64,000 bases of DNA from a virus (IMGVR_UViG_3300025659_000002:1-64000); one strand, 5' to 3'. Counted from the stretch's first letter, positions 1 to 64,000 are shown. Numbers and translations: made by a program. Notes: generated by a model from the letters alone, not told the origin.

Positions 1-277
1 TCAGAGAGTCATACGCATACCCTTTTAAAAAGTCCCTATACACGGGAGTGAAATAATAACATTTCTTTTTTAAAAAAGTTGCTTCTGAATCAGTTAACCG
101 TAGTGATCCCATTGCGTTAATATTGCTTATCAATTTTGTAGCAAACGAGTCACTAAACTCAACTGGAGTTCTCAATATCCACTTGTATTCTACTTCCAGG
201 TTTGGAAATTGCTGACAAACAAACATTTGTTGTGTAAATTTATATATGTCGTTATCTAAAATTGAATTAATTAACAT
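1..277 (-). CDS. nicotinate phosphoribosyltransferase-like (PncB N-terminal part); 3' end truncated by window edge
   Basis: Minus-strand ORF not in the track, starting at ATG (rev-comp of 275-277) and running off coordinate 1 with no stop. N-terminus MLINSILDNDIYKFTQQMFVCQQF resembles the PncB N-terminal LLDTDxYKLxMxQ motif (from memory). Confidence 0.4.
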   Translation of the reverse strand, partial: MLINSILDNDIYKFTQQMFVCQQFPNLEVEYKWILRTPVEFSDSFATKLISNINAMGSLRLTDSEATFLKKKCYYFTPVYRDFLKGYAYDSL

Positions 278-3593: not shown

Positions 3594-3602
3594 ATAAATT
3601 AG

Positions 3603-3674
3603 AGCCTAGGGAAGGAGTTGAACCTCCATTTCTCTTAGCGGACTAAGAGCGTCTTACCATTAGACGACCACGGC
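3603..3674 (-). tRNA. tRNA-like element with 8-nt (or self-pairing) anticodon loop, anticodon region AGTCCGCT
   Basis: GCCGTGG-TC-GTCTAATGGTAAGAC-G-CTCTT-AGTCCGCT-AAGAG-AAAT-GGAGG-TTCAACT-CCTTC-CCTAGGC-T. The anticodon arm is an 18-nt perfect palindrome (7-bp stem plus 4-nt loop, or 5-bp stem plus 8-nt loop). Two acceptor-stem mismatches. Confidence 0.35.
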
Positions 3675-15566: not shown

Positions 15567-16418
15567 TTAATATCTAGTTGTACACGCTGGACAACATATC
15601 CAGGTAGACTTTTTTCGTCTAAGTCCACATTTTTGGCAATAACGTTTCTCTAAATCATTTACCGTAATAGGTTTTAATGACATAGGTAATAATTTATAGG
15701 TTACTACATGAGAGGGAGTATGCTCAAATTTTTGATAGCTTCTTCCGAACTTTTGTTCTGAATGACTACCTTGTTTAATTCTACCCGTCTCTTTCATAGG
15801 CGCGCTTGCAAAGCATGCGGTTGTAAGTACTTCGCCACTATCTTCTATCATACCCATAGCCATTTGAGGCTCTGCTGGATTTGAGCATCTTGTGCCCCTA
15901 GCGCTATACATACTTGGCGCTGACATGCCGCTAATTCCCGTGAATTCGCCAGCAAGGTCGGTCCACCAAGTATTATCGTTGGTTAGTATATCACCTTCCC
16001 ATGTAAACGGTCTTGGGTAGACATTAGGATTAGTGTATGGGCTACAGTATTTATGCTCGATAGGAAATGACTCTCGATAAAACTCTATCTCTAGTAATCC
16101 GTTCTCGGCTATAGCTTTGTCTATTTCCTCAGTATCTTCTACGTTATATGTTGAAAATTCAAACTTTCGATCTACTTCGATATGTCGTTCCAGAAAATAA
16201 TGCTGTCCAGGGTCAAGCACAAGCCCGCCATTGGAAATATATTTTCCATTAAGTTTTATCCTCAATTTACAGGAAGAAGTTTCTAAGTTAGTAAGTTCGA
16301 TTTCAAATTCGTCTTTATCATTTAAGTAATAAGTTGCTTCTATGCCATTCCAGACATCTAATTGGCTATATACTTTTAAACGATTCTTTTGAATTGTAAG
16401 GTTGGTTTTTATATTCAT
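15567..16418 (-). CDS. hypothetical protein with C-terminal zinc ribbon
   Basis: 283 aa; C-terminal CQKCG...CCPAC. Confidence 0.45.
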   Translation of the reverse strand: MNIKTNLTIQKNRLKVYSQLDVWNGIEATYYLNDKDEFEIELTNLETSSCKLRIKLNGKYISNGGLVLDPGQHYFLERHIEVDRKFEFSTYNVEDTEEIDKAIAENGLLEIEFYRESFPIEHKYCSPYTNPNVYPRPFTWEGDILTNDNTWWTDLAGEFTGISGMSAPSMYSARGTRCSNPAEPQMAMGMIEDSGEVLTTACFASAPMKETGRIKQGSHSEQKFGRSYQKFEHTPSHVVTYKLLPMSLKPITVNDLEKRYCQKCGLRRKKSTWICCPACTTRY

Positions 16419-16554
16419 TATTGTTACCTTGTGTTTACGTCAAATTTGTGTGGAATTGCCACACTCAAATGCCACATATTTAATATGACACTCTGATACA
16501 ATTATCAGGTCTCTTAAATATAACTATTATTTTTAATATAACCAACTATTATAT

Positions 16555-16836
16555 TTATAGCGTAAGCATGTCTCCATGCCCACTATCTAGTTTGATACTA
16601 GTGCACCCTGCGTTGGGCATACCAAAATCGTCTAGTGGTTCAAATCCGTCGTATTCTCCGCAAATATATCCGGTGTAATATAATATATCATCATCGTCAT
16701 ACATTTCGAATTTTCTGCCGAATTCTGTAATTTCTTCTTCGGAATATACAGCCCCTCCTGGGCCTAATGTTCCTAATTCATCTTTTAAACTTTCAAGATG
16801 GCTTTCGGTTATAATCCAAGCATAAGCTCTACTCAT
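16555..16836 (-). CDS. hypothetical acidic protein (93 aa)
   Basis: ORF track. Confidence 0.45.
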   Translation of the reverse strand: MSRAYAWIITESHLESLKDELGTLGPGGAVYSEEEITEFGRKFEMYDDDDILYYTGYICGEYDGFEPLDDFGMPNAGCTSIKLDSGHGDMLTL

Positions 16837-16849
16837 AGTAGTTTATTGG

Positions 16850-17206
16850 TTAATTAAATAAATATCTCGGTATTATTATTAAGATAGCTGTAATTACCCA
16901 AAGAATCCCAGTACCCATAAATCCGGCTAACATACTTATTAACGCAGTTCCAAAAGTTATTATTATTAGTTCTTTAGAAGTGCAAAAATTTTCAGTAAAT
17001 TTTAACATCTCTGTTGACTTGGTATTTATATCTATAGCAGAAGAATCGTCCGTCGTCGCTAACTTTACTATATGTATAATAACTAATGTTATTAACGCTA
17101 TAGTAGTTAAAGTTATGAAAAAGAATATTAGTCCCTCTATGTGAAGTAAGAACATTATTGCAGGTATTAGTAGTAATAATGTCTTCTTATATTTCATATT
17201 AATCAT
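16850..17206 (-). CDS. membrane protein (118 aa, 3 TM)
   Basis: ORF track; hydrophobic helices. Confidence 0.45.
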   Translation of the reverse strand: MINMKYKKTLLLLIPAIMFLLHIEGLIFFFITLTTIALITLVIIHIVKLATTDDSSAIDINTKSTEMLKFTENFCTSKELIIITFGTALISMLAGFMGTGILWVITAILIIIPRYLFN

Positions 17207-17552
17207 CTTCTGTTTCCTTTTGTTTTTGTTTTTGTACTAGTTTACATACAGCTTCGTATTTTTTAGGCTCTTCTTTAGCCTCACTATAGTTACTATAAAC
17301 TCTTTCCATTTCTTCTTTTATTTCTTGTGCAGTTTGAATGTTGTTGAGAATTTTAATAGGGCCGTCATGCTCAATTCGAATTGAACCGATACAAGGTTCA
17401 CCCCAACCTTCATCCATATGTTCTTGATCTAGTTCAGCTAATTTTTCACTTTCCATTAATTGTGGATAAGCACTTCCATCCCCACCGTTTTGTACACTGT
17501 ACCATATTTTAGTTATCATTATTGTTTTTTTTTGATTTAGTTTAGTTGACAT
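17199..17552 (-). CDS. hypothetical protein (117 aa)
   Basis: ORF track. Confidence 0.45.
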   Translation of the reverse strand: MSTKLNQKKTIMITKIWYSVQNGGDGSAYPQLMESEKLAELDQEHMDEGWGEPCIGSIRIEHDGPIKILNNIQTAQEIKEEMERVYSNYSEAKEEPKKYEAVCKLVQKQKQKETEDD

Positions 17553-33014: not shown

Positions 33015-34114
33015 AATACGCTTGTAAGATGGCACAGAGTGCACGGGCGTAAGGCCAATTTTTCAGGTGGCTTTCCTGGTATTCTTTTTATGGAAGATGA
33101 GAGTGGCTGAGGGGTAAACTCTTCTTCCGAGGGATGCAACTCCCTTTGCGAGACTTATTAATCCCCGCACCACCTACGTTAAGTAGGAAGCCCTATCTTA
33201 AATTCTTTTCCAAATTGAAGGCTCTAGCCTTGCAACTCCTTCGGATAGACACCCAACGTTTTTATTACGTCTTTGGCCCAGTTTTATGAAGTTTGTACTT
33301 TTCCTGAGAATACAGTTAGTACGGTATATCTTTAAAGGGATCATTTCAATTCCCCTCGTTTCCACGCAGACTTACGTCGTCGTAATACACCAATCACAGC
33401 TCCAGGTATGGAGCCAGGTCTTTCCACTTACATTAACTCTACAATTTCACGACTATCTTAGCTGCCGCCAAGCTTAACCGCTTCCTTATAAATACTGCTG
33501 CAACCCTTGCGAGGCGCAGAGCTCGACGTTATACAGGCCGATATTAGTGATCTTTTATTATAAGCAGCCAGGAATCTAATTGCTTTCATTATAAATGACG
33601 AGAATCGAACTCGTGATCTACGGATTAATATTCCGTTGCTCTACCAACTGAGCTACATTATGGTTTTTCTGTGATTGGGAGGACGCGTTCCCGGTTGTGG
33701 TTACGTAGTTTTCAGCCACATAATGCCACTCGCCCTCGTAAGTCATTAGCCATGACAGCCTCCGATCCTTCATCATAGTAGTTGTCTCTTCTTGACTTAG
33801 AAGCCAATGAAGGCCTCAATATCTTGATCCCGACAAACTATATAATTGATAACCCGCTTGACAGACAGGATATCTTGCGATTACTATACAGACATTTCTG
33901 CCTACCCCTCAGGGGATACGTATCTCGACCTTCACGCCTCGCAGTTAGCCTGGAGTGTTGGACTATTTTTTACAAGATAAATAGAAGTTCGCAGTGTATA
34001 AATGTTTGCACTCCCGAAGGAGAACAACGCAATGCCAGGTATAATTTCACAGACCCGACTGCTTTTAGTCCCATTGCTGGGGTTATCTTTAACTGGATGT
34101 CATACCACCCAGGT
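33015..34114 (-). ncRNA. GC-enriched ORF-poor island, candidate large structured ncRNA with embedded tRNA-like element
   Basis: About 1.1 kb at roughly 45% GC against about 33% background, with no convincing ORF. Bounded by promoter-like motifs at 34146 (oriented toward it) and 32983. Confidence 0.35.
33590..33662 (-). tRNA. degenerate tRNA-like element (anticodon loop ATATTAA; acceptor stem does not pair)
   Basis: CATAATG-TA-GCTCAGTTGGTAGAGC-A-ACGGA-ATATTAA-TCCGT-AGATC-ACGAG-TTCGATT-CTCGT-CATTTAT. Canonical D-, anticodon- and T-arms but unpaired acceptor arms (both sides contain ATAATG as a direct repeat). Confidence 0.35.
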
Positions 34115-57260: not shown

Positions 57261-57332
57261 CAGGGACGGCAGGACTCGAACCCGCATTGCCGGTTTTGGA
57301 GACCGGAGCTCTACCAATTGAACTACGCCCCT
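57261..57332 (-). tRNA. tRNA-Trp (anticodon CCA)
   Basis: AGGGGCG-TA-GTTCAATTGGTAGAGC-T-CCGGT-CTCCAAA-ACCGG-CAAT-GCGGG-TTCGAGT-CCTGC-CGTCCCT-G; all stems pair; U11-G24 in the D stem. Confidence 0.7.
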
Positions 57333-57956: not shown

Positions 57957-57985
57957 CTTTACAAATAAATTCGTAACACTTATAT
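57957..57985 (+). promoter_or_regulatory. sigma70-like promoter candidate (TTTACA-17-TATATT)
   Basis: tttaca + aataaattcgtaacact + tatatt, 41 nt upstream of ATG 58027. Confidence 0.4.
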
Positions 57986-58026
57986 TGAGATATCAATTGA
58001 TAATTATTTTTAAGGACATAAAATAC

Positions 58027-58371
58027 ATGGATAAAGCACAACACGTGTTTATGAAATACGCTGAGCGTAATAAACGTAAACCTAATCGTCTATTATTAGA
58101 TTTAGCCCCAGGAGCATTATCTGGGACTGTTACCAGTTTATTGCTTCACCCCTTAGATACCCTACAAGTTCGTCGTCAGACGGCTCCTCCCTCTCAAAAT
58201 GTTGACTTTAATAAACCTCCTAAACTTACGAAACCAATAGGTAAATTAAAGGCTTTTAAATCTTTGTATAAAGGTTTAGGATTAAAATTGTTACGTAACA
58301 TTCCAACGTTAGCTATAGGATTTGGTACCTACGGAGTTACTAAAGACTATCTAGACAAAAAATATAAATAG
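58027..58371 (+). CDS. MDKA-motif protein 1 (114 aa)
   Basis: Starts MDKAQHVFMKYAE (ORF track 57985..58371 trimmed to the ATG with RBS aagga). Confidence 0.5.
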   Translation: MDKAQHVFMKYAERNKRKPNRLLLDLAPGALSGTVTSLLLHPLDTLQVRRQTAPPSQNVDFNKPPKLTKPIGKLKAFKSLYKGLGLKLLRNIPTLAIGFGTYGVTKDYLDKKYK

Positions 58372-58379
58372 GAGTTAAA

Positions 58380-60419
58380 ATGGATATTCAATCACCATTA
58401 GGAACTGTAGTAGGGTTAGGAGCCTCAGCAGTCCCGTCGATTCCACAACCAAAAAGGCGTACTAAATTTAGAAAACTTATGAACGCCTCTTTAGTAGGAG
58501 CATCAAGTGCTATTTCTACGTTGGTGCCTGGCGCGCCCTTACAAAGTGCAGCAGCGGCGTCATTAGCTCCGGAAGGGAGAAAGGTGCAAGCAGCTCAAGC
58601 AGCCCTTACTGGGTCTATGTTAGGGTCTTTACCTGGGGCGGCACTGTTTACTAGACAATTTTTTGCAAGTAATAAAAAAAACATAGAAGATTTAAAAGGA
58701 AAAACATTCAACGACATAAGCGATGTTACAAAGGCCTATTTAAAAAATCAAAAGCAGTTAGCTAAAAATTTTATAAAACAACCAGATTTACCATCAAAAG
58801 CTTTTCAATTATTTACTAATAAAATAAAAGGCACCTTAACAAAATTTAAAACATTCAAAGTACCAGCAGCCGCGTTATTAGCAGGAAGTGCTATAGGTTC
58901 TGGCATAGGATACCATAGGAGTACAAATATGAAGAAACAAGGAGAGTTTTCTAAAGCAGAACTATTATTTAATAAAACTGCAGGACCGACTGCTGCAAGC
59001 GTGGCTGAGACAGGGCAGAAGGTATTAAAAAGAACTAAAGAGTTATTTTCTGGCAATAAGATGAAGTCTAAGATAGATGCAGCTAAAAAGAGCGGGAAAG
59101 AGCTTGACGCTAACGAGGCTGGTAAAGAAATTGTAAAAGTATACGCTACACGAGGTGCGGCGGGTACAGGCGCAGCAGCTGTATTAGCAGACGCAGTTAT
59201 AGATAAAAAAGCGGAATATGTATTTTTAAAAGTTGCAATTAATGCGAAGGCATTAAAATTAAAGGCCATAACAATTGCCCAGGAAGCGAAAGCAACCTCA
59301 GATGCGGTTGTTAAAGGAACTTCAAAAAGAGTAGTGAAAAATAAAAGTCTGGCACCCGTAGATGCCCGATGGACCTCTTCTGGAGGTAAAGGAACCGCTG
59401 CGAATACTTCGAAATCTTCGAAAGCGTCAGCAGCTTCAACTACTTCGAAATCTACAAAATCTACAAAGGCTACAACTTCAACTGCTCCGGCAAAAACTGA
59501 GCAACCTGCGGCAAAGAAAGGAATAAGTTTAAATGCTAAACTTCTAGGGTTTGGCGCAGGAACAACTCTCGCAGGAATAGGGATAGGGCGCGCTAGTAAA
59601 ACTGGATCGGTATCTGCTAGATATTTGGAACTAGTAAAAGGTAGCCGTCTAAAGGGCCTTAAACAAAGTAAAGCAGATTATATAAATAAATTAAAAACTG
59701 TGACCTCTAAACTTCATAAGGATCATCCTAAGTATACGGAACTATTAAAAAATGTAGAAAAAGAGATTAAAATCGAAACAGCTAAAGTAGTAGGAACAGT
59801 AGTAGGAACTCCTACAGCAGCAGCTACCTTAGTAGGCGGAGCTATGTCTTTAAATAAAAAAGCAGAAGCTGTAATGAGTAAATTAGGTAAAAAGTATCCT
59901 TATATAGATTTAGCACATGATCTAGAGTTGTCTAGAATAAGAGAAGAGCTACAAGCGCGAGCGCATGCTAGAGCCTTACAGGAAAGTCCTTCTGGCAAAT
60001 GGAATAAAGAAAACGCTCCAGAGTATTCGGCGAGCTCAAAAAAGGAAAGAAGTAAACAATATAGGACTGCCACAATACCTAAAACAACGGGGGTCGGAGC
60101 AGCATTAGGAGCTTGATCAGGTACAAAATGGTTAGGTAAAAATCCTCCTAGTAATTATTGAGCTGTAAACCCAGAACCGCTTTCAGTATTAAGAAAAATG
60201 AAAGGTTTAGGAAAAAATGTTGCAGTAGGAGCTGTAGCGGGTGCAGCGTTTGGAACAATGATAGCAGCTGCCGTAGGGAGCGATAAAGCTCAGCGAAAAT
60301 ATTTGAAAGTTAAAGGATTAAGAGGCGGTCAAGATCTTACCAGTAAACAGCTAAAAAAATATGTACCAGAGGCTTTAACAACGTCTAGATTAATTAATGA
60401 TATAGACTACGCATCTTAA
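58380..60419 (+). CDS. Ala/Lys/Gly-rich large protein (about 679 aa) with two in-frame TGA; candidate virion internal protein
   Basis: ORFs 58380..60116 and 60198..60419 are in one frame, joined through TGA at 60117 and TGA at 60159 (GAALGAWSGTKWLGKNPPSNYWAVNPEP). RBS taggagttaaaATG. Confidence 0.55.
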
Positions 60420-60436
60420 AGAGTGGGAAATAATTA

Positions 60437-60598
60437 AATGAAAAAACAAGCAGTAAAAGACTTAGTTACCGAAGTAAAACATCTGACTCACATGATTGAG
60501 GGTAAAAAGGGTTTTAATGTAATGAGAGGTCTCTACGGACCCAACGCAATTGCAAATTTTGCTAAATGAAAAAAAAGCAAATCCTGGAAAGAAATATA
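60437..60598 (+). CDS. small ORF (uncertain)
   Basis: ATG with an aattaaATG context; length and possible internal TGA are uncertain from my hand reading. Confidence 0.2.
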
Positions 60599-60652
60599 AA
60601 GATTATGCTCAGTTATACAAAAAAGCAGAATACATTTTCTCAAAAATAGTCA

Positions 60653-61195
60653 ATGCCTAAATTCTTTCCAGTACCAAAATTTAAGATAGATCGAGGATTC
60701 GATCCAACCCTCATTCAACAAAAAGCTGGATGAGACAATATCTTTTTGCAGGGACGAAAGAACAAAGCTAAATATAGAGCCTTAATAGCTAATAAATCTA
60801 TACCATTTATGAGTAGAGAAGTGTTTACTAGGAAACCCCTCCCTAACGTTACTAGGGAAGGTTATAATGGGATCTTAACCTCTTTTAAGAAGGTAGCTCA
60901 GGTATTTGAGAAGTATGCTAAATATACCTCTTGTAAAATCAAGTTTAAGAAACTTCAAAAACATAAAAAACCTCTAACTCCAGAAGAGCGCGCGTTAGTG
61001 ATGAAAAGCAAAGCAGTTTGGAATTTTCATTTTGGTAGAGATGGCAAACGCCAAGCAACTCCGGCTGTATGGAAATCGGTACAACCTGATGGTAGAACTA
61101 TATATGTAACTAATACTCATCGAGCCTTTAATACAGCTCCTACAGTAAAAGGCGCAATTAACAGATATCACACATTTATAAAAGGAACAGCATAA
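60653..61195 (+). CDS. basic protein with in-frame TGA (extends ORF 60746..61195 upstream)
   Basis: ORF track starts at TTG 60746. The same frame is open back to ATG at about 60653 through TGA at about 60731 (QQKAGWDNIFLQGRK). Confidence 0.4.
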
Positions 61196-61917
61196 TGAAT
61201 AAAGCACAATACATATTTGAAAAATGAGCTTCAACTGCGATGATAAGAGCGGTTAAGGCTAGAAAGATCTCTGCAGAAGCAGCGGGAAAAGCTACTCAAA
61301 CTTTAGGACTTAAGTCTAGATATTTAAAAGATTTGGGCCAGGGAGTTGAAGGGTTGGCACAGTTAAGGACTTCCGCAAAACACCAACTTCAAGTTGCTAA
61401 ACTCTATGACCCTAAGGGAGGGCTTTCGAGTAAAGAGGTATTAAAAGAAAAAGTTCGTACTTTTAAAACAATGTCAGGCAAAGGCAATTTTGCCAAGTAT
61501 TATGGAAAAGATCCTAAACGACCCATCACTTTCCACGAGTATAGTCCAGGAACTGCCGGAATTGGGAGCTCTATAAAACAAACTCTTCTAACAAAGGCAC
61601 AAGCTACACTGAGAGGTGTACCTATGGCCGACGTAGTTAGAAACCCAGGAAACATTCAGGGTGGAAAAATAATTGACTTCCTTCCCGCAGGTAGAAGGGG
61701 GCGCAAAGCTCTACAAACAACCACTGTCGGGAAACAGACTGAGGGATTTAAAAAAGCGGTTAAGAGTGAAGTGTGGAAGGCTCTGTCTTTAAAGAAAAAA
61801 CCAGCTGCAGCTATAGAAGGTATTAAGTACCAAGCTATAGATTTTGGAAGTAAGTTATTAGAGAGCGGTATGACCCGAAATTCTAATATACCTAAAGCAA
61901 TATACGGTAAGAAATAA
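61195..61917 (+). CDS. MDKA-motif protein 2 (MNKAQYIFEKW..., basic, 240 aa) with in-frame TGA
   Basis: ATG at 61195 (TAATG overlap). TGA at 61225 is in frame (MNKAQYIFEK-W-ASTAMIRAV); the ORF track begins only at the internal Met at 61240. Confidence 0.5.
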
Positions 61918-61918
61918 A

Positions 61919-63319
61919 ATGGATAAAGCCCTACACGTATTTAATAAGTATGCTGCCGATCAGCCCCACCAAGCTAGAGTATTAAAGAAGCTTGAGAAGA
62001 CTGATCAAATGTTGTTATATCACGGCTTAGGTTCTGGTAAAACCTATACGGCATTACGTGCAGGTGAAAAGTTTAAGAAACCTGTAACAGTTATAGGCCC
62101 TGCAGCTTTAAAACATAATTTTCCTAAAGAGAGGCTTAAGCATAAAATAAAAGGGGAAGGTTCTTATTATTCTTATAATAAACCTCCAACAAAAAATGTT
62201 TCAAAAGACGTAGTTGTATTCGATGAAGCCCACAGAATGGGTAGAACAGAGTCCCAACGTTCACACTATCCAGATAAAATAAAGGGTAAGAAAACCCTGC
62301 TTCTATCAGGAACTCCTATTAGAAATGAACCTGCAGAATTAATACCGCTTTTACGGGGTTTAAATATTAATATAGGTAGAGATAAAAAAAGATTTAACCA
62401 GGCGTTTATTCAAGAGACTAAACAAAAACCTGGATTTTTTGCACGAGTATTTAAGGGTATTAAGCCTGGAACGGTAAAACGTGGGAAAAATTTAGGAGTT
62501 CTTAGAAAAGCTCTACGAGGCAAAGTAGATTATCATGCCCCAACTAAAGATAAAAATTATCCTTCAGTTATAAATGAGCGTATAGAAACTACAATGTCTA
62601 AAAAACAACAAGCAGCTTATAAAATGGTTATGAAAGAAGATCCTGATTTAAAGTATAAAATTAGGCATGGAATAGCTCCTTCTAAAACAGAATCATCTCG
62701 AATGAATGCATTCTTAGGAGCGGCACGCCAAGTATCTAATCGTCCGGGCAAATACAATTTAAGCGCTACAGAGGCCGATGCTCCTAAACTAAATAGAGCG
62801 ATGTCAGAAATTTCTAAGAGGCATAAAGCTAATAAAAAATATCGTGGAGTAACTTACTCTACATACTTAGGTCACGGAGTGGACCCAATGGCCAAAAGAC
62901 TTAAGAGAACTAAGATACCTTTTGGCACCTTTACAGGAAGACAGACTGACCTAGAAAAAGCTGATGTAGTAAAGAAATATAATTCTGGCAAGATTAAACA
63001 CTTACTTATATCTGGAGCGGGAGCAGAAGGGCTTGATTTAAAAGGAACAAGGCTTCTTCAAATATTAGAGCCTCATTGGAATGAACCTACTCTAAAACAA
63101 GTAAAAGGTAGAGTAAATAGATTCAAGTCTCATGAACATTTAAAAAAACAAAATCGAAATATAACGATTCAAACATATATTAATAAGCCACGTAAAACTA
63201 GATTCTTACGTAGACAACATGCGGGAACTGATGAGTATCTAGAATTGCTATCAAAAAATAAACAAAATCTTGTAAATGATTTTACTAAAGTATTAAAGGA
63301 AGTAGGAAGTGATGGATAA
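61919..63319 (+). CDS. SNF2/DEAD-like superfamily-2 helicase with MDKA N-terminal motif
   Basis: MDKALHVFNKYAAD; Walker A GLGSGKT, DEAH box VVFDEAHR, LLSGTPIRN (SNF2 motif III-like); 466 aa. Confidence 0.55.
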   Translation: MDKALHVFNKYAADQPHQARVLKKLEKTDQMLLYHGLGSGKTYTALRAGEKFKKPVTVIGPAALKHNFPKERLKHKIKGEGSYYSYNKPPTKNVSKDVVVFDEAHRMGRTESQRSHYPDKIKGKKTLLLSGTPIRNEPAELIPLLRGLNINIGRDKKRFNQAFIQETKQKPGFFARVFKGIKPGTVKRGKNLGVLRKALRGKVDYHAPTKDKNYPSVINERIETTMSKKQQAAYKMVMKEDPDLKYKIRHGIAPSKTESSRMNAFLGAARQVSNRPGKYNLSATEADAPKLNRAMSEISKRHKANKKYRGVTYSTYLGHGVDPMAKRLKRTKIPFGTFTGRQTDLEKADVVKKYNSGKIKHLLISGAGAEGLDLKGTRLLQILEPHWNEPTLKQVKGRVNRFKSHEHLKKQNRNITIQTYINKPRKTRFLRRQHAGTDEYLELLSKNKQNLVNDFTKVLKEVGSDG

Positions 63320-63764
63320 AGCTGCGCAAGTATATAATAAATATTTTTATAAGTTTGGAATGGCGAGAGTACCCTCGTTACAAAGTTGGGATGACGTTAT
63401 TAGCCAGGTAAAGAGCCATACCCGCCTTAAACCAAAATTGGACCGCGTAACACGAATGAAGTCAGTTACGTCTAATAGGAATGAAGGAAAAGATATAATA
63501 GAGAAAGTATTACCAGAAATAGATATAGTCAAAACTAAAATGAATATTGGAGATAAAGGGGTGGTACAAACTAAAAACCATCAACTTATATTTCACAGAG
63601 CTAATCCGGATTGGGGAGAAAGCGGTGATATGCATATGTCAACATATTATACAAAAGACATGCCCATTCAAAAAAGGTTTGGTGAAAAACTAATTAATTT
63701 TACTGATGCTAGTTTAAAAAAGAAAATAAAAGACAAATATCCAGAATTAGAGATGAATTGGTAA
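63312..63764 (+). CDS. MDKA-motif protein 4 (150 aa)
   Basis: MDKAAQVYNKYFYK; ATG 63312 overlaps the end of the helicase gene. Confidence 0.5.
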   Translation: MDKAAQVYNKYFYKFGMARVPSLQSWDDVISQVKSHTRLKPKLDRVTRMKSVTSNRNEGKDIIEKVLPEIDIVKTKMNIGDKGVVQTKNHQLIFHRANPDWGESGDMHMSTYYTKDMPIQKRFGEKLINFTDASLKKKIKDKYPELEMNW

Positions 63765-63767
63765 ACT

Positions 63768-64000
63768 AGTGCAAAATAAACCCTCTATATCAGACCACTA
63801 TCAATATGGTAAACGTCTTCTTAGGCATAAGGCCTTTATGATTAGGCCCGGCAGGACTATAGGAGCCCCATACGGGACGCTTTTAGCTCATGACCTCTCT
63901 AAGTTCCGCCCAAGCGAGTGGAAGCCTTATGTAGCCTATTGGCAGGGCCCTAAAGGTATTACTGGTACGAAGGATCCAGAAGTAACTAGAAAATTTAGAG
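63768..64000 (+). CDS. partial ORF running off the window end
   Basis: Open frame from GTG 63768 (or ATG 63837) to the window edge; VQNKPSISDHYQYGKRLL...; not in the track. Confidence 0.25.

Follow-up and report, generated by a model that had tools for sequence, protein, structure and literature searches.

We examined positions 58027–63764 of a 64,000-nucleotide (nt) stretch of viral DNA (IMGVR_UViG_3300025659_000002:1-64000, hereafter the window), part of the ~211.7-kb genome (211,738-nt contig) of an uncultured jumbo phage, in which a first-pass annotation had described a module of genes that use TGA as a sense codon. When open reading frames (ORFs) are defined with TAA and TAG alone as stops, the region resolves into six full-length plus-strand genes, five of them ending at TAA, one at TAG and none at TGA, together with one small ORF. 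These genes and their in-frame TGAs are listed below, with L001 denoting the closest relative of this phage.

58027–58371, plus strand: leader (MDKAQHVFMKYA) followed by one mitochondrial-carrier repeat; 114 residues, no TGA, TAG stop
58380–60419, plus strand: Ala/Lys-rich ORF of 679 codons with TGAs at 60117 and 60159, TAA stop
60117–60119, plus strand: in-frame TGA, codon 580 of ORF 58380–60419
60159–60161, plus strand: in-frame TGA, codon 594 of ORF 58380–60419
60438–60650, plus strand: small ORF from the three-frame translation, with a TGA at 60567 directly before an A8 run (60569–60576)
60653–61195, plus strand: 180-residue protein (g60653) with a TGA at 60731
60731–60733, plus strand: in-frame TGA, codon 27 of ORF 60653–61195, kept as TGA in L001
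61195–61917, plus strand: 240-residue protein with leader MNKAQYIFEK-TGA-A, its start overlapping the preceding TAA (TAATG)
61225–61227, plus strand: in-frame TGA, codon 11 of ORF 61195–61917 (MNKAQYIFEK-TGA-AS), leader position 11
61919–63319, plus strand: leader (MDKALHVFNKYA) followed by a SNF2-family helicase; 466 residues, no TGA
63312–63764, plus strand: leader (MDKAAQVYNKYF) followed by a 150-residue protein, function not assigned

The TGAs reported earlier, at 60117, 60159 and ~60731 and in codon 11 of ORF 61195–61917, are all in frame where they had been placed. The description of the 58380–60419 product as Ala/Lys-rich also holds (14.7% Ala, 13.5% Lys), as does the assignment of every gene in the 58–64 kb block to the plus strand. 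A fifth in-frame TGA, at 60567 in the small ORF starting at 60438, had been overlooked.

The first-pass annotation had named a missing coding signal as the observation that would speak against sense use of these codons; we find that the in-frame codon-usage signal continues across the TGAs. Under a codon-usage log-odds model trained on other late ORFs, the scorable segments before, between and after the TGAs (10–26 codons each) gave 0.40–0.59 bits per codon in frame, against 0.42–0.66 in undisputed coding parts, and the other two frames were negative in all those segments; two further 4-codon segments are too short for the log-odds to discriminate. Across the TGAs of ORF 58380–60419 the in-frame score is 0.46 bits per codon, and the off-frame scores are negative. 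Just 2.4% of all plus-strand TGA triplets precede a run of 100 or more codons with neither TAA nor TAG. The downstream ATGs that a code-11 gene caller takes as starts, at 60198 and 61240, both lack a ribosome-binding site (RBS), with no Shine-Dalgarno sequence at 60198. With TGA read as sense, the fragmented genes are rejoined and ORF coverage goes up from 76% to 95% at 34–39.9 kb and from 85% to 89% at 58–63.8 kb, with minus-strand ORF coverage nearly unchanged. Together with a conserved TGA and the alignments to Trp described below, this establishes TGA as a sense codon in the 58–64 kb module, as had been proposed.

The amino acid can be read from alignments. The terminase of this phage lies 7 kb beyond the window (contig L011, 18607–20151) and contains three in-frame TGAs, which we compared in a five-way alignment with L001, the standard-code relative L003, Salmonella phage Arash and Vibrio phage D181. 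All three TGAs face W in Arash; in phage D181 they face W, W and Y, and in L003 W at one and Y at two. At four more conserved Trp columns, TGA and TGG are exchanged between this phage and L001. Within the window, the TGA at 60731 stays TGA in L001 (PG-TGA-DN.LLQGRK) where local identity is only 38%; among three standard-code homologues, it pairs with W in two (P0004, P0024) and with Y in the third (P0063). At leader position 11, the site of the TGA at 61225, every one of the 25 leader copies has L, I, Y, V or W. Because of these three sets of alignments, we conclude that TGA stands for Trp (code 4), as judged by comparison with homologues.

We read ~131 of the 211.7 kb of the genome (62%), comprising the window and ~67 kb of flanks, extended by exact-protein look-ups. 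Since the window DNA is identical to an independent ENA scaffold (ERZ23491642 scaffold_55, 138,951 nt, the same phage as the 211,738-nt contig, ENA ERZ508549 NODE_13) and proteins of the phage are found again on dozens of contigs, we regard the sequence as reliable. Contigs L011 and L058 match the window exactly over 12,082 nt. Window positions 1–4 (TCAG) deviate from the ENA scaffold, with the other 11,488 overlapping bases matching exactly.

Within the genome portion read, sense use of TGA is confined to plus-strand blocks, which in window coordinates occupy 34.0–39.9 kb and 58.0–80.5 kb. The 38 plus-strand late ORFs (9,122 codons) contain 50 in-frame TGAs and 60 TGGs, so that TGA accounts for only ~45% of late Trp codons, and they stop at TAA (28) or TAG (10). 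The 116 minus-strand ORFs (17,684 codons) contain 304 TGGs; 15 of them terminate with TGA, several in ATGA start-stop overlaps, and no two of the 116 are joined when TGA is treated as sense. Trp content is 1.72% in the minus-strand ORFs, and 0.66% in the late ORFs by TGG alone or 1.21% with TGA included. The limits of 58–64 kb given in the first-pass annotation prove too narrow, as recoding continues beyond the window to at least 80 kb, taking in four more leader-tagged ORFs (65052–67729), the terminase and additional structural genes. The late character of the block is indicated by the terminase (GpA_ATPase) and a protein read as baseplate-spike-like. The minus-strand genes include RNA-repair, NAD-salvage, tRNA and other accessory genes and are presumed to be early or middle. 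One more recoded ORF begins before the window ends.

63838–64000, plus strand: next recoded late ORF (DUF5662 region), start only, leaving the window; placed by the identity of L011 and L058 to the window

We consider it very probable that 58–64 kb opens a large plus-strand late block in which TGA encodes Trp, while the minus-strand genes keep to the standard code, with TGA as a terminator. If this phage behaves like the alternatively coded phages already published, the in-frame TGAs would prevent full translation of the plus-strand genes early in infection; a phage-made opal-decoding activity might then build up, allowing full-length virion, packaging and cargo proteins to be made later.

Several observations weigh against this late-block reading. 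A homologue search with the C-terminal 157 residues of the 679-residue protein gave no match, leaving the TGAs at 60117 and 60159 without comparative support. No tRNA(UCA), release factor 1 (RF1) or tryptophanyl-tRNA synthetase (TrpRS) was detected in the ~131 of 211.7 kb by ARAGORN, Rfam or Pfam labels. The sole suppressor tRNA present decodes TAG, not TGA, and none of the 38 late ORFs contains an in-frame TAG, though 10 stop at TAG. The early and late timing is taken from gene content and strand. Finally, use of the standard code by the host is suggested solely by the TGA stops, and the lack of sense TGA, on the minus strand.

The search for a decoder covered ~29 tRNAs, plus a transfer-messenger RNA (tmRNA), in the ~131 kb. 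One of these tRNAs adjoins the recoded block.

57261–57332, minus strand: tRNA-Trp(CCA), on the strand opposite to the recoded block and ~700 nt ahead of its start (ARAGORN; Rfam 62.3 bits)

This tRNA shows none of the Hirsh-type or short-anticodon-stem features for which we checked it: the anticodon stem has 5 bp, U11-G24 is kept and there is no G24A. Going by its sequence, it is not an opal suppressor. The ten ORFs adjoining it gave no Pfam matches, so no release factor or aminoacyl-tRNA synthetase is recognised there. The suppressor for TAG is an amber tRNA(CUA) located ~11.4 kb before the first window position, on the minus strand in window orientation (contig L057, 11220–11296; Rfam 58.9 bits); the TAG recoding that it raises was rejected for the parts seen, as the late ORFs are free of in-frame TAG. 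Among other candidates for a UGA reader, the tRNA at 3602–3674 on the minus strand was ruled out by sequence (2-base 'cc' anticodon in ARAGORN, loop of 6 or 8 nt, Rfam 38.3 bits). An IMG/VR search for a tRNA-Trp-like anticodon arm with UCA (CCGGTCTTCAAAACCGG) returned 10 matches, none on contigs of L001 or of a further relative, L002. The most likely decoder, to which we give about an even chance, is a tRNA(UCA) encoded in the remaining ~80 kb and charged by the host TrpRS. Near-cognate reading by the phage tRNA-Trp(CCA), combined with some interference with release factor 2 (RF2), would be the second option and is doubtful.

Such near-cognate reading could also occur with no true reassignment, the TGAs being deliberate leaky terminators at which minority read-through by tRNA-Trp(CCA) yields short and long isoforms. 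The failure to find a dedicated tRNA(UCA) and the position of the tRNA-Trp(CCA) gene next to the block are compatible with this, as are the location of both TGAs of the 679-residue protein near its C-terminus, where a 579-residue form would be nearly complete, and the base after the in-frame TGA, which for 41 of the 50 TGAs is G or A. Yet essential single-copy genes carry several evenly spread TGAs (three in the terminase, up to five in neighbouring ORFs), and since several TGAs per gene compound, hardly any full-length product would result from low-efficiency read-through. Among relatives, moreover, conserved Trp sites switch freely between TGA and TGG, and we regard leaky termination as unlikely. 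Alternatively, the host may natively use code 4, as Mycoplasma and Spiroplasma do, with the phage following its host and driving no switch. An ordinary phage tRNA-Trp(CCA) and the lack of an opal suppressor tRNA in 62% of the genome would fit such a host. It would, however, leave an AT-rich genome (37% GC) free to use TGA for Trp throughout, against which stand the 116 minus-strand ORFs, with their 304 TGGs, no joining of ORFs by TGA read-through, 15 TGA stops and several ATGA overlaps; a native code-4 host thus appears very improbable.

That the TGAs are real stops, and the pieces independent products of split genes, pseudogenes or assembly errors, is how public gene calls render the region, with separate ORFs of 578, 73, 43, 128 and 225 residues. 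This reading has a negligible chance of being right: the same sequence occurs in independent assemblies, the coding signal stays in frame across the TGAs, the downstream pieces starting at 60198 and 61240 have no RBSs, the TGA at 60731 is conserved in L001, and real stops would sever the leader from its protein at 61225 and split the terminase into three pieces. Equally hard to credit is a TGA that encodes selenocysteine (Sec) or glycine (code 25) in place of Trp. One tRNA did score 50.3 bits against the Rfam tRNA-Sec threshold of 47; its anticodon is UGA, not UCA, and the match is really a tRNA-Ser(UGA). In the five-way terminase alignment, the TGA columns pair with W or Y and never with C or G, which together with the tRNA-Ser anticodon excludes both Sec and Gly. 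For Sec decoding, which would call for a tRNA-Sec(UCA), a Sec insertion sequence (SECIS) and alignment of TGA with Cys or Sec, 50 in-frame TGAs in 38 ORFs are also far too frequent.

Late-gene recoding of TGA to Trp is already known in phages, and the phage studied here is a further case, from an uncultured jumbo lineage; an earlier account of alternatively coded phages is reportedly that of Ivanova et al. in 2014. The public gene calls break at least 23 late genes of this phage, the terminase included, and annotation, protein clustering and structure prediction in this lineage will need code 4 for the plus-strand blocks only. In code-4 phages, late, structural and lysis genes are recoded while early genes remain compatible with the standard code, and a suppressor tRNA has been proposed as the switch (bioRxiv 10.1101/2021.08.26.457843); only 35% of their genomes yielded an opal suppressor tRNA (bioRxiv 10.1101/2021.08.26.457843). 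Our phage resembles those described by Borges et al. in having terminase TGAs opposite Trp, early or replication-type genes compatible with the standard code and in-frame TGAs in late genes; an opal suppressor often goes undetected in those phages, and none was found here in the ~131 kb read. Unlike them, it is a ~212-kb phage with multisubunit RNA polymerase genes, is recoded by strand blocks, carries an amber suppressor with no TAG recoding, and uses TGA for ~45% of late Trp codons. It thereby extends late-gene TGA-to-Trp recoding from the gut phages surveyed so far to a jumbo lineage with its own multisubunit RNA polymerase. In the code change module of Jade phage, a suppressor tRNA, TrpRS and RF1 lie directly upstream of the recoded lysis cassette (bioRxiv 10.1101/2021.08.26.457843). 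Here too a translation gene, tRNA-Trp, lies ~700 nt upstream of a recoded block and in the standard-code part; unlike in that module, its anticodon is CCA rather than UCA, and the ten neighbouring ORFs contain no TrpRS or RF1 by Pfam. A nearly complete tRNA set with an amber suppressor and no visible opal suppressor sharpens the question of how such phages change code.

Many proteins of the block share a 12-residue leader, with the consensus MDKAEY[VI]FEK[LIY]A from 25 sequences (also given as MDKAxx[VI]FxK[YIL]A). In at least eight consecutive late ORFs, the motif M-[DN]-K-A-x-x-[VI]-[FY]-x-K-[YWIL]-A stands at the N-terminus, preceded in two cases by some extra residues (ORF starts 58027, 61195, 61919, 63312, 65052, 65786, 66507 and 67127). 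Copies also occur internally and at protein C-termini, namely within the 679-residue protein (58953, 59208 and 59859), within g60653 and, in the +1 frame, at 60622. A regular expression for the leader finds 12 plus-strand copies within 9 kb (58033–67133), to which the leader-like copy of g60653 adds a thirteenth, and elsewhere only 5 chance matches across 131 kb in six frames. L001 has its own set of proteins bearing this leader, and other relatives have lineage-specific leaders (MSKFFKxA in L002, AF[IV]xELEKIS in L003). Divergence of the tagged proteins is rapid: although the L001 helicase retains 80% identity, only three of the helicase's neighbours are detectable there.

A short N-terminal leader common to clustered, otherwise unrelated and fast-evolving proteins is the arrangement known for phage capsid cargo. 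Phage P1 packages the helicase-containing anti-restriction protein DarB. The internal proteins of T4 are diverse cargo with only a capsid targeting sequence (CTS) in common (PMC3012670). The block examined here has the same architecture as the T4 internal proteins and Alt with their CTS, and as the Dar proteins of P1, in that diverse, fast-evolving proteins share only a short N-terminal leader; because of this likeness to T4, with a targeting sequence as the sole common element, we infer that the proteins of 58–67.8 kb may be capsid-packaged, injected cargo tagged by the common leader. The leader itself looks like a capsid-targeting or docking peptide. It has no sequence similarity to the T4 CTS and no conserved Glu cleavage site after it, and some of its copies are internal or C-terminal. 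In T4-type cargo, such a leader steers its protein into the prohead and is cut off by the prohead protease, and the proteins occur in virions; for the leader described here, the abundance of a helicase homologue in virions of Salmonella phage Arash is an indirect sign in this direction. If it is a true packaging signal, the leader cassette would help to pick out injected anti-defence proteins from uncultured phages.

The closest cultured relative is Salmonella phage Arash, whose SNF2 helicase and terminase are 33.5% and 26% identical to those of our phage; the closest cultured relatives overall are only 26–35% identical. The helicase at 61919–63319 matches Pfam SNF2-rel_dom (4e-17) and Helicase_C (3e-10) as well as phrog_62 (1.4e-35), and is 80% identical to its L001 counterpart and 33.5% to Arash Gp217. 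In Arash, this helicase gene lies among structural genes, adjoining RNA polymerase subunits, and its product is abundant in virions (38 peptides, 1,148 spectra; PMC10585845). Unlike our phage, Arash uses the standard code, and the neighbours of its helicase have no common leader.

The 114-residue protein encoded at 58027–58371 contains a carrier-like repeat and is not a canonical carrier. It matches Pfam Mito_carr with E=1.2e-14 and 54.3 bits, above the cut-off of 22.3, over profile positions 5–95 of 96. Like members of SLC25 (PF00153), it covers one full carrier repeat with the P-x-D-x-x-x-x-R motif (PLDTLQVR); unlike them, it has one ~90-residue repeat rather than three, is phage-encoded and has a leader in front, so that the three tandem ~100-residue repeats and six transmembrane helices that define the family are not present. 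Its L001 orthologue is 48% identical. Almost all of its 3,867 library matches are three-repeat, eukaryote-type carriers, and only P0128, P0243 and P0185 are other single-repeat relatives among the best 150 matches from 1.84 billion representatives; P0128 and P0243 bear the same leader. One could imagine a late switch to TGA as Trp with no opal suppressor tRNA at all, possibly through tRNA-Trp(CCA) and an RF2 antagonist, with the amber suppressor serving another purpose and with the first 10 kb encoding leader-tagged, injected capsid cargo that includes the SNF2 helicase and a one-repeat carrier-like membrane protein that would need to oligomerise into a carrier-like pore; this combination seems rather improbable.

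The remaining proteins of the region vary in character. The 679-residue protein has repeated Gly/Ala-rich hydrophobic segments, several of them followed by a leader-like KKAExxFxK motif. In the small ORF downstream, an A7 variant of the homopolymer would give a 73-residue product ending in the leader-like KKAEYIFSKIVNA, with its stop 3 nt before the next gene; the A8 run at 60569–60576 could reflect transcriptional slippage, a +1 frameshift or a homopolymer error. The C-terminal ~85 residues of g60653 form a widespread conserved domain (..TNTHRA..KGAI.RYH.FIKGTA); among its 98 homologues are fusions to cupin, HD or 2H-phosphoesterase domains. An AlphaFold2 (AF2) model of g60653 has a predicted local distance difference test (pLDDT) score of 83 and gave no significant match in the PDB.

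The expression signals described in the first-pass annotation held up in part. Of the strong GGAG-type RBSs it reported, only that of the 58380 gene has this form (TAGGAG); elsewhere the sites are AAGGA-like, and the 60653 gene, being coupled to the stop before it, has no RBS. The sigma-70-like promoter said to precede the block corresponds to two matches that our promoter scan gave in the intergenic region.

57958–57986, plus strand: sigma-70-like hexamer pair matching at 10/12 positions
57997–58024, plus strand: sigma-70-like hexamer pair matching at 10/12 positions

Both are thus present, but shuffled sequence yields matches of this kind at least as often (13 observed, 17.3 ± 4.0 expected). 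A search for a DNA motif common to the upstream regions of both recoded blocks found none.

Among 50,697 GenBank phage records there is no close relative of this phage, megablast of the 58–64 kb region against GenBank phages gave no match, and an exact 49-mer search in IMG/VR likewise returned nothing. As a metagenome scan with the helicase found nothing closer than L001, no near-identical strain was available for analysis of TGA/TGG polymorphism. The terminase gene of L001 contains, at ~16366–17474, a ~370-residue insertion with LAGLIDADG-like motifs, an intein or homing endonuclease, which itself has eight in-frame TGAs.

In the left flank, contigs L060 (12590–19342) and L062 (10418–16492) carry a further block that is on the plus strand in window orientation and includes the multisubunit RNA polymerase beta and beta' genes. 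A PhoH gene in this block is called as two adjoining fragments, consistent with splitting by TGA. Beyond the block, the window minus strand encodes a reverse transcriptase (RVT_1) and an intein-containing ORF of 779 residues.

Two non-coding RNAs were also detected. A GOLLD RNA lies on the minus strand at window positions 33301–33738 (Rfam RF02032, 124.8 bits, E=4e-34, covering the full model and under the gathering score of 150), in a 1.3-kb gap and divergent from the first TGA-recoded block. Embedded in it at 33590–33661 is a tRNA-like element with a bulged acceptor stem and the anticodon AUU, which rules it out as a UGA reader. Phage-encoded tmRNA genes are found both in this phage (L057, 19421–19792) and in its relative L002 (14859–15261), with an Rfam score of 85.3 bits and the tag peptide GRPAVKLAA.

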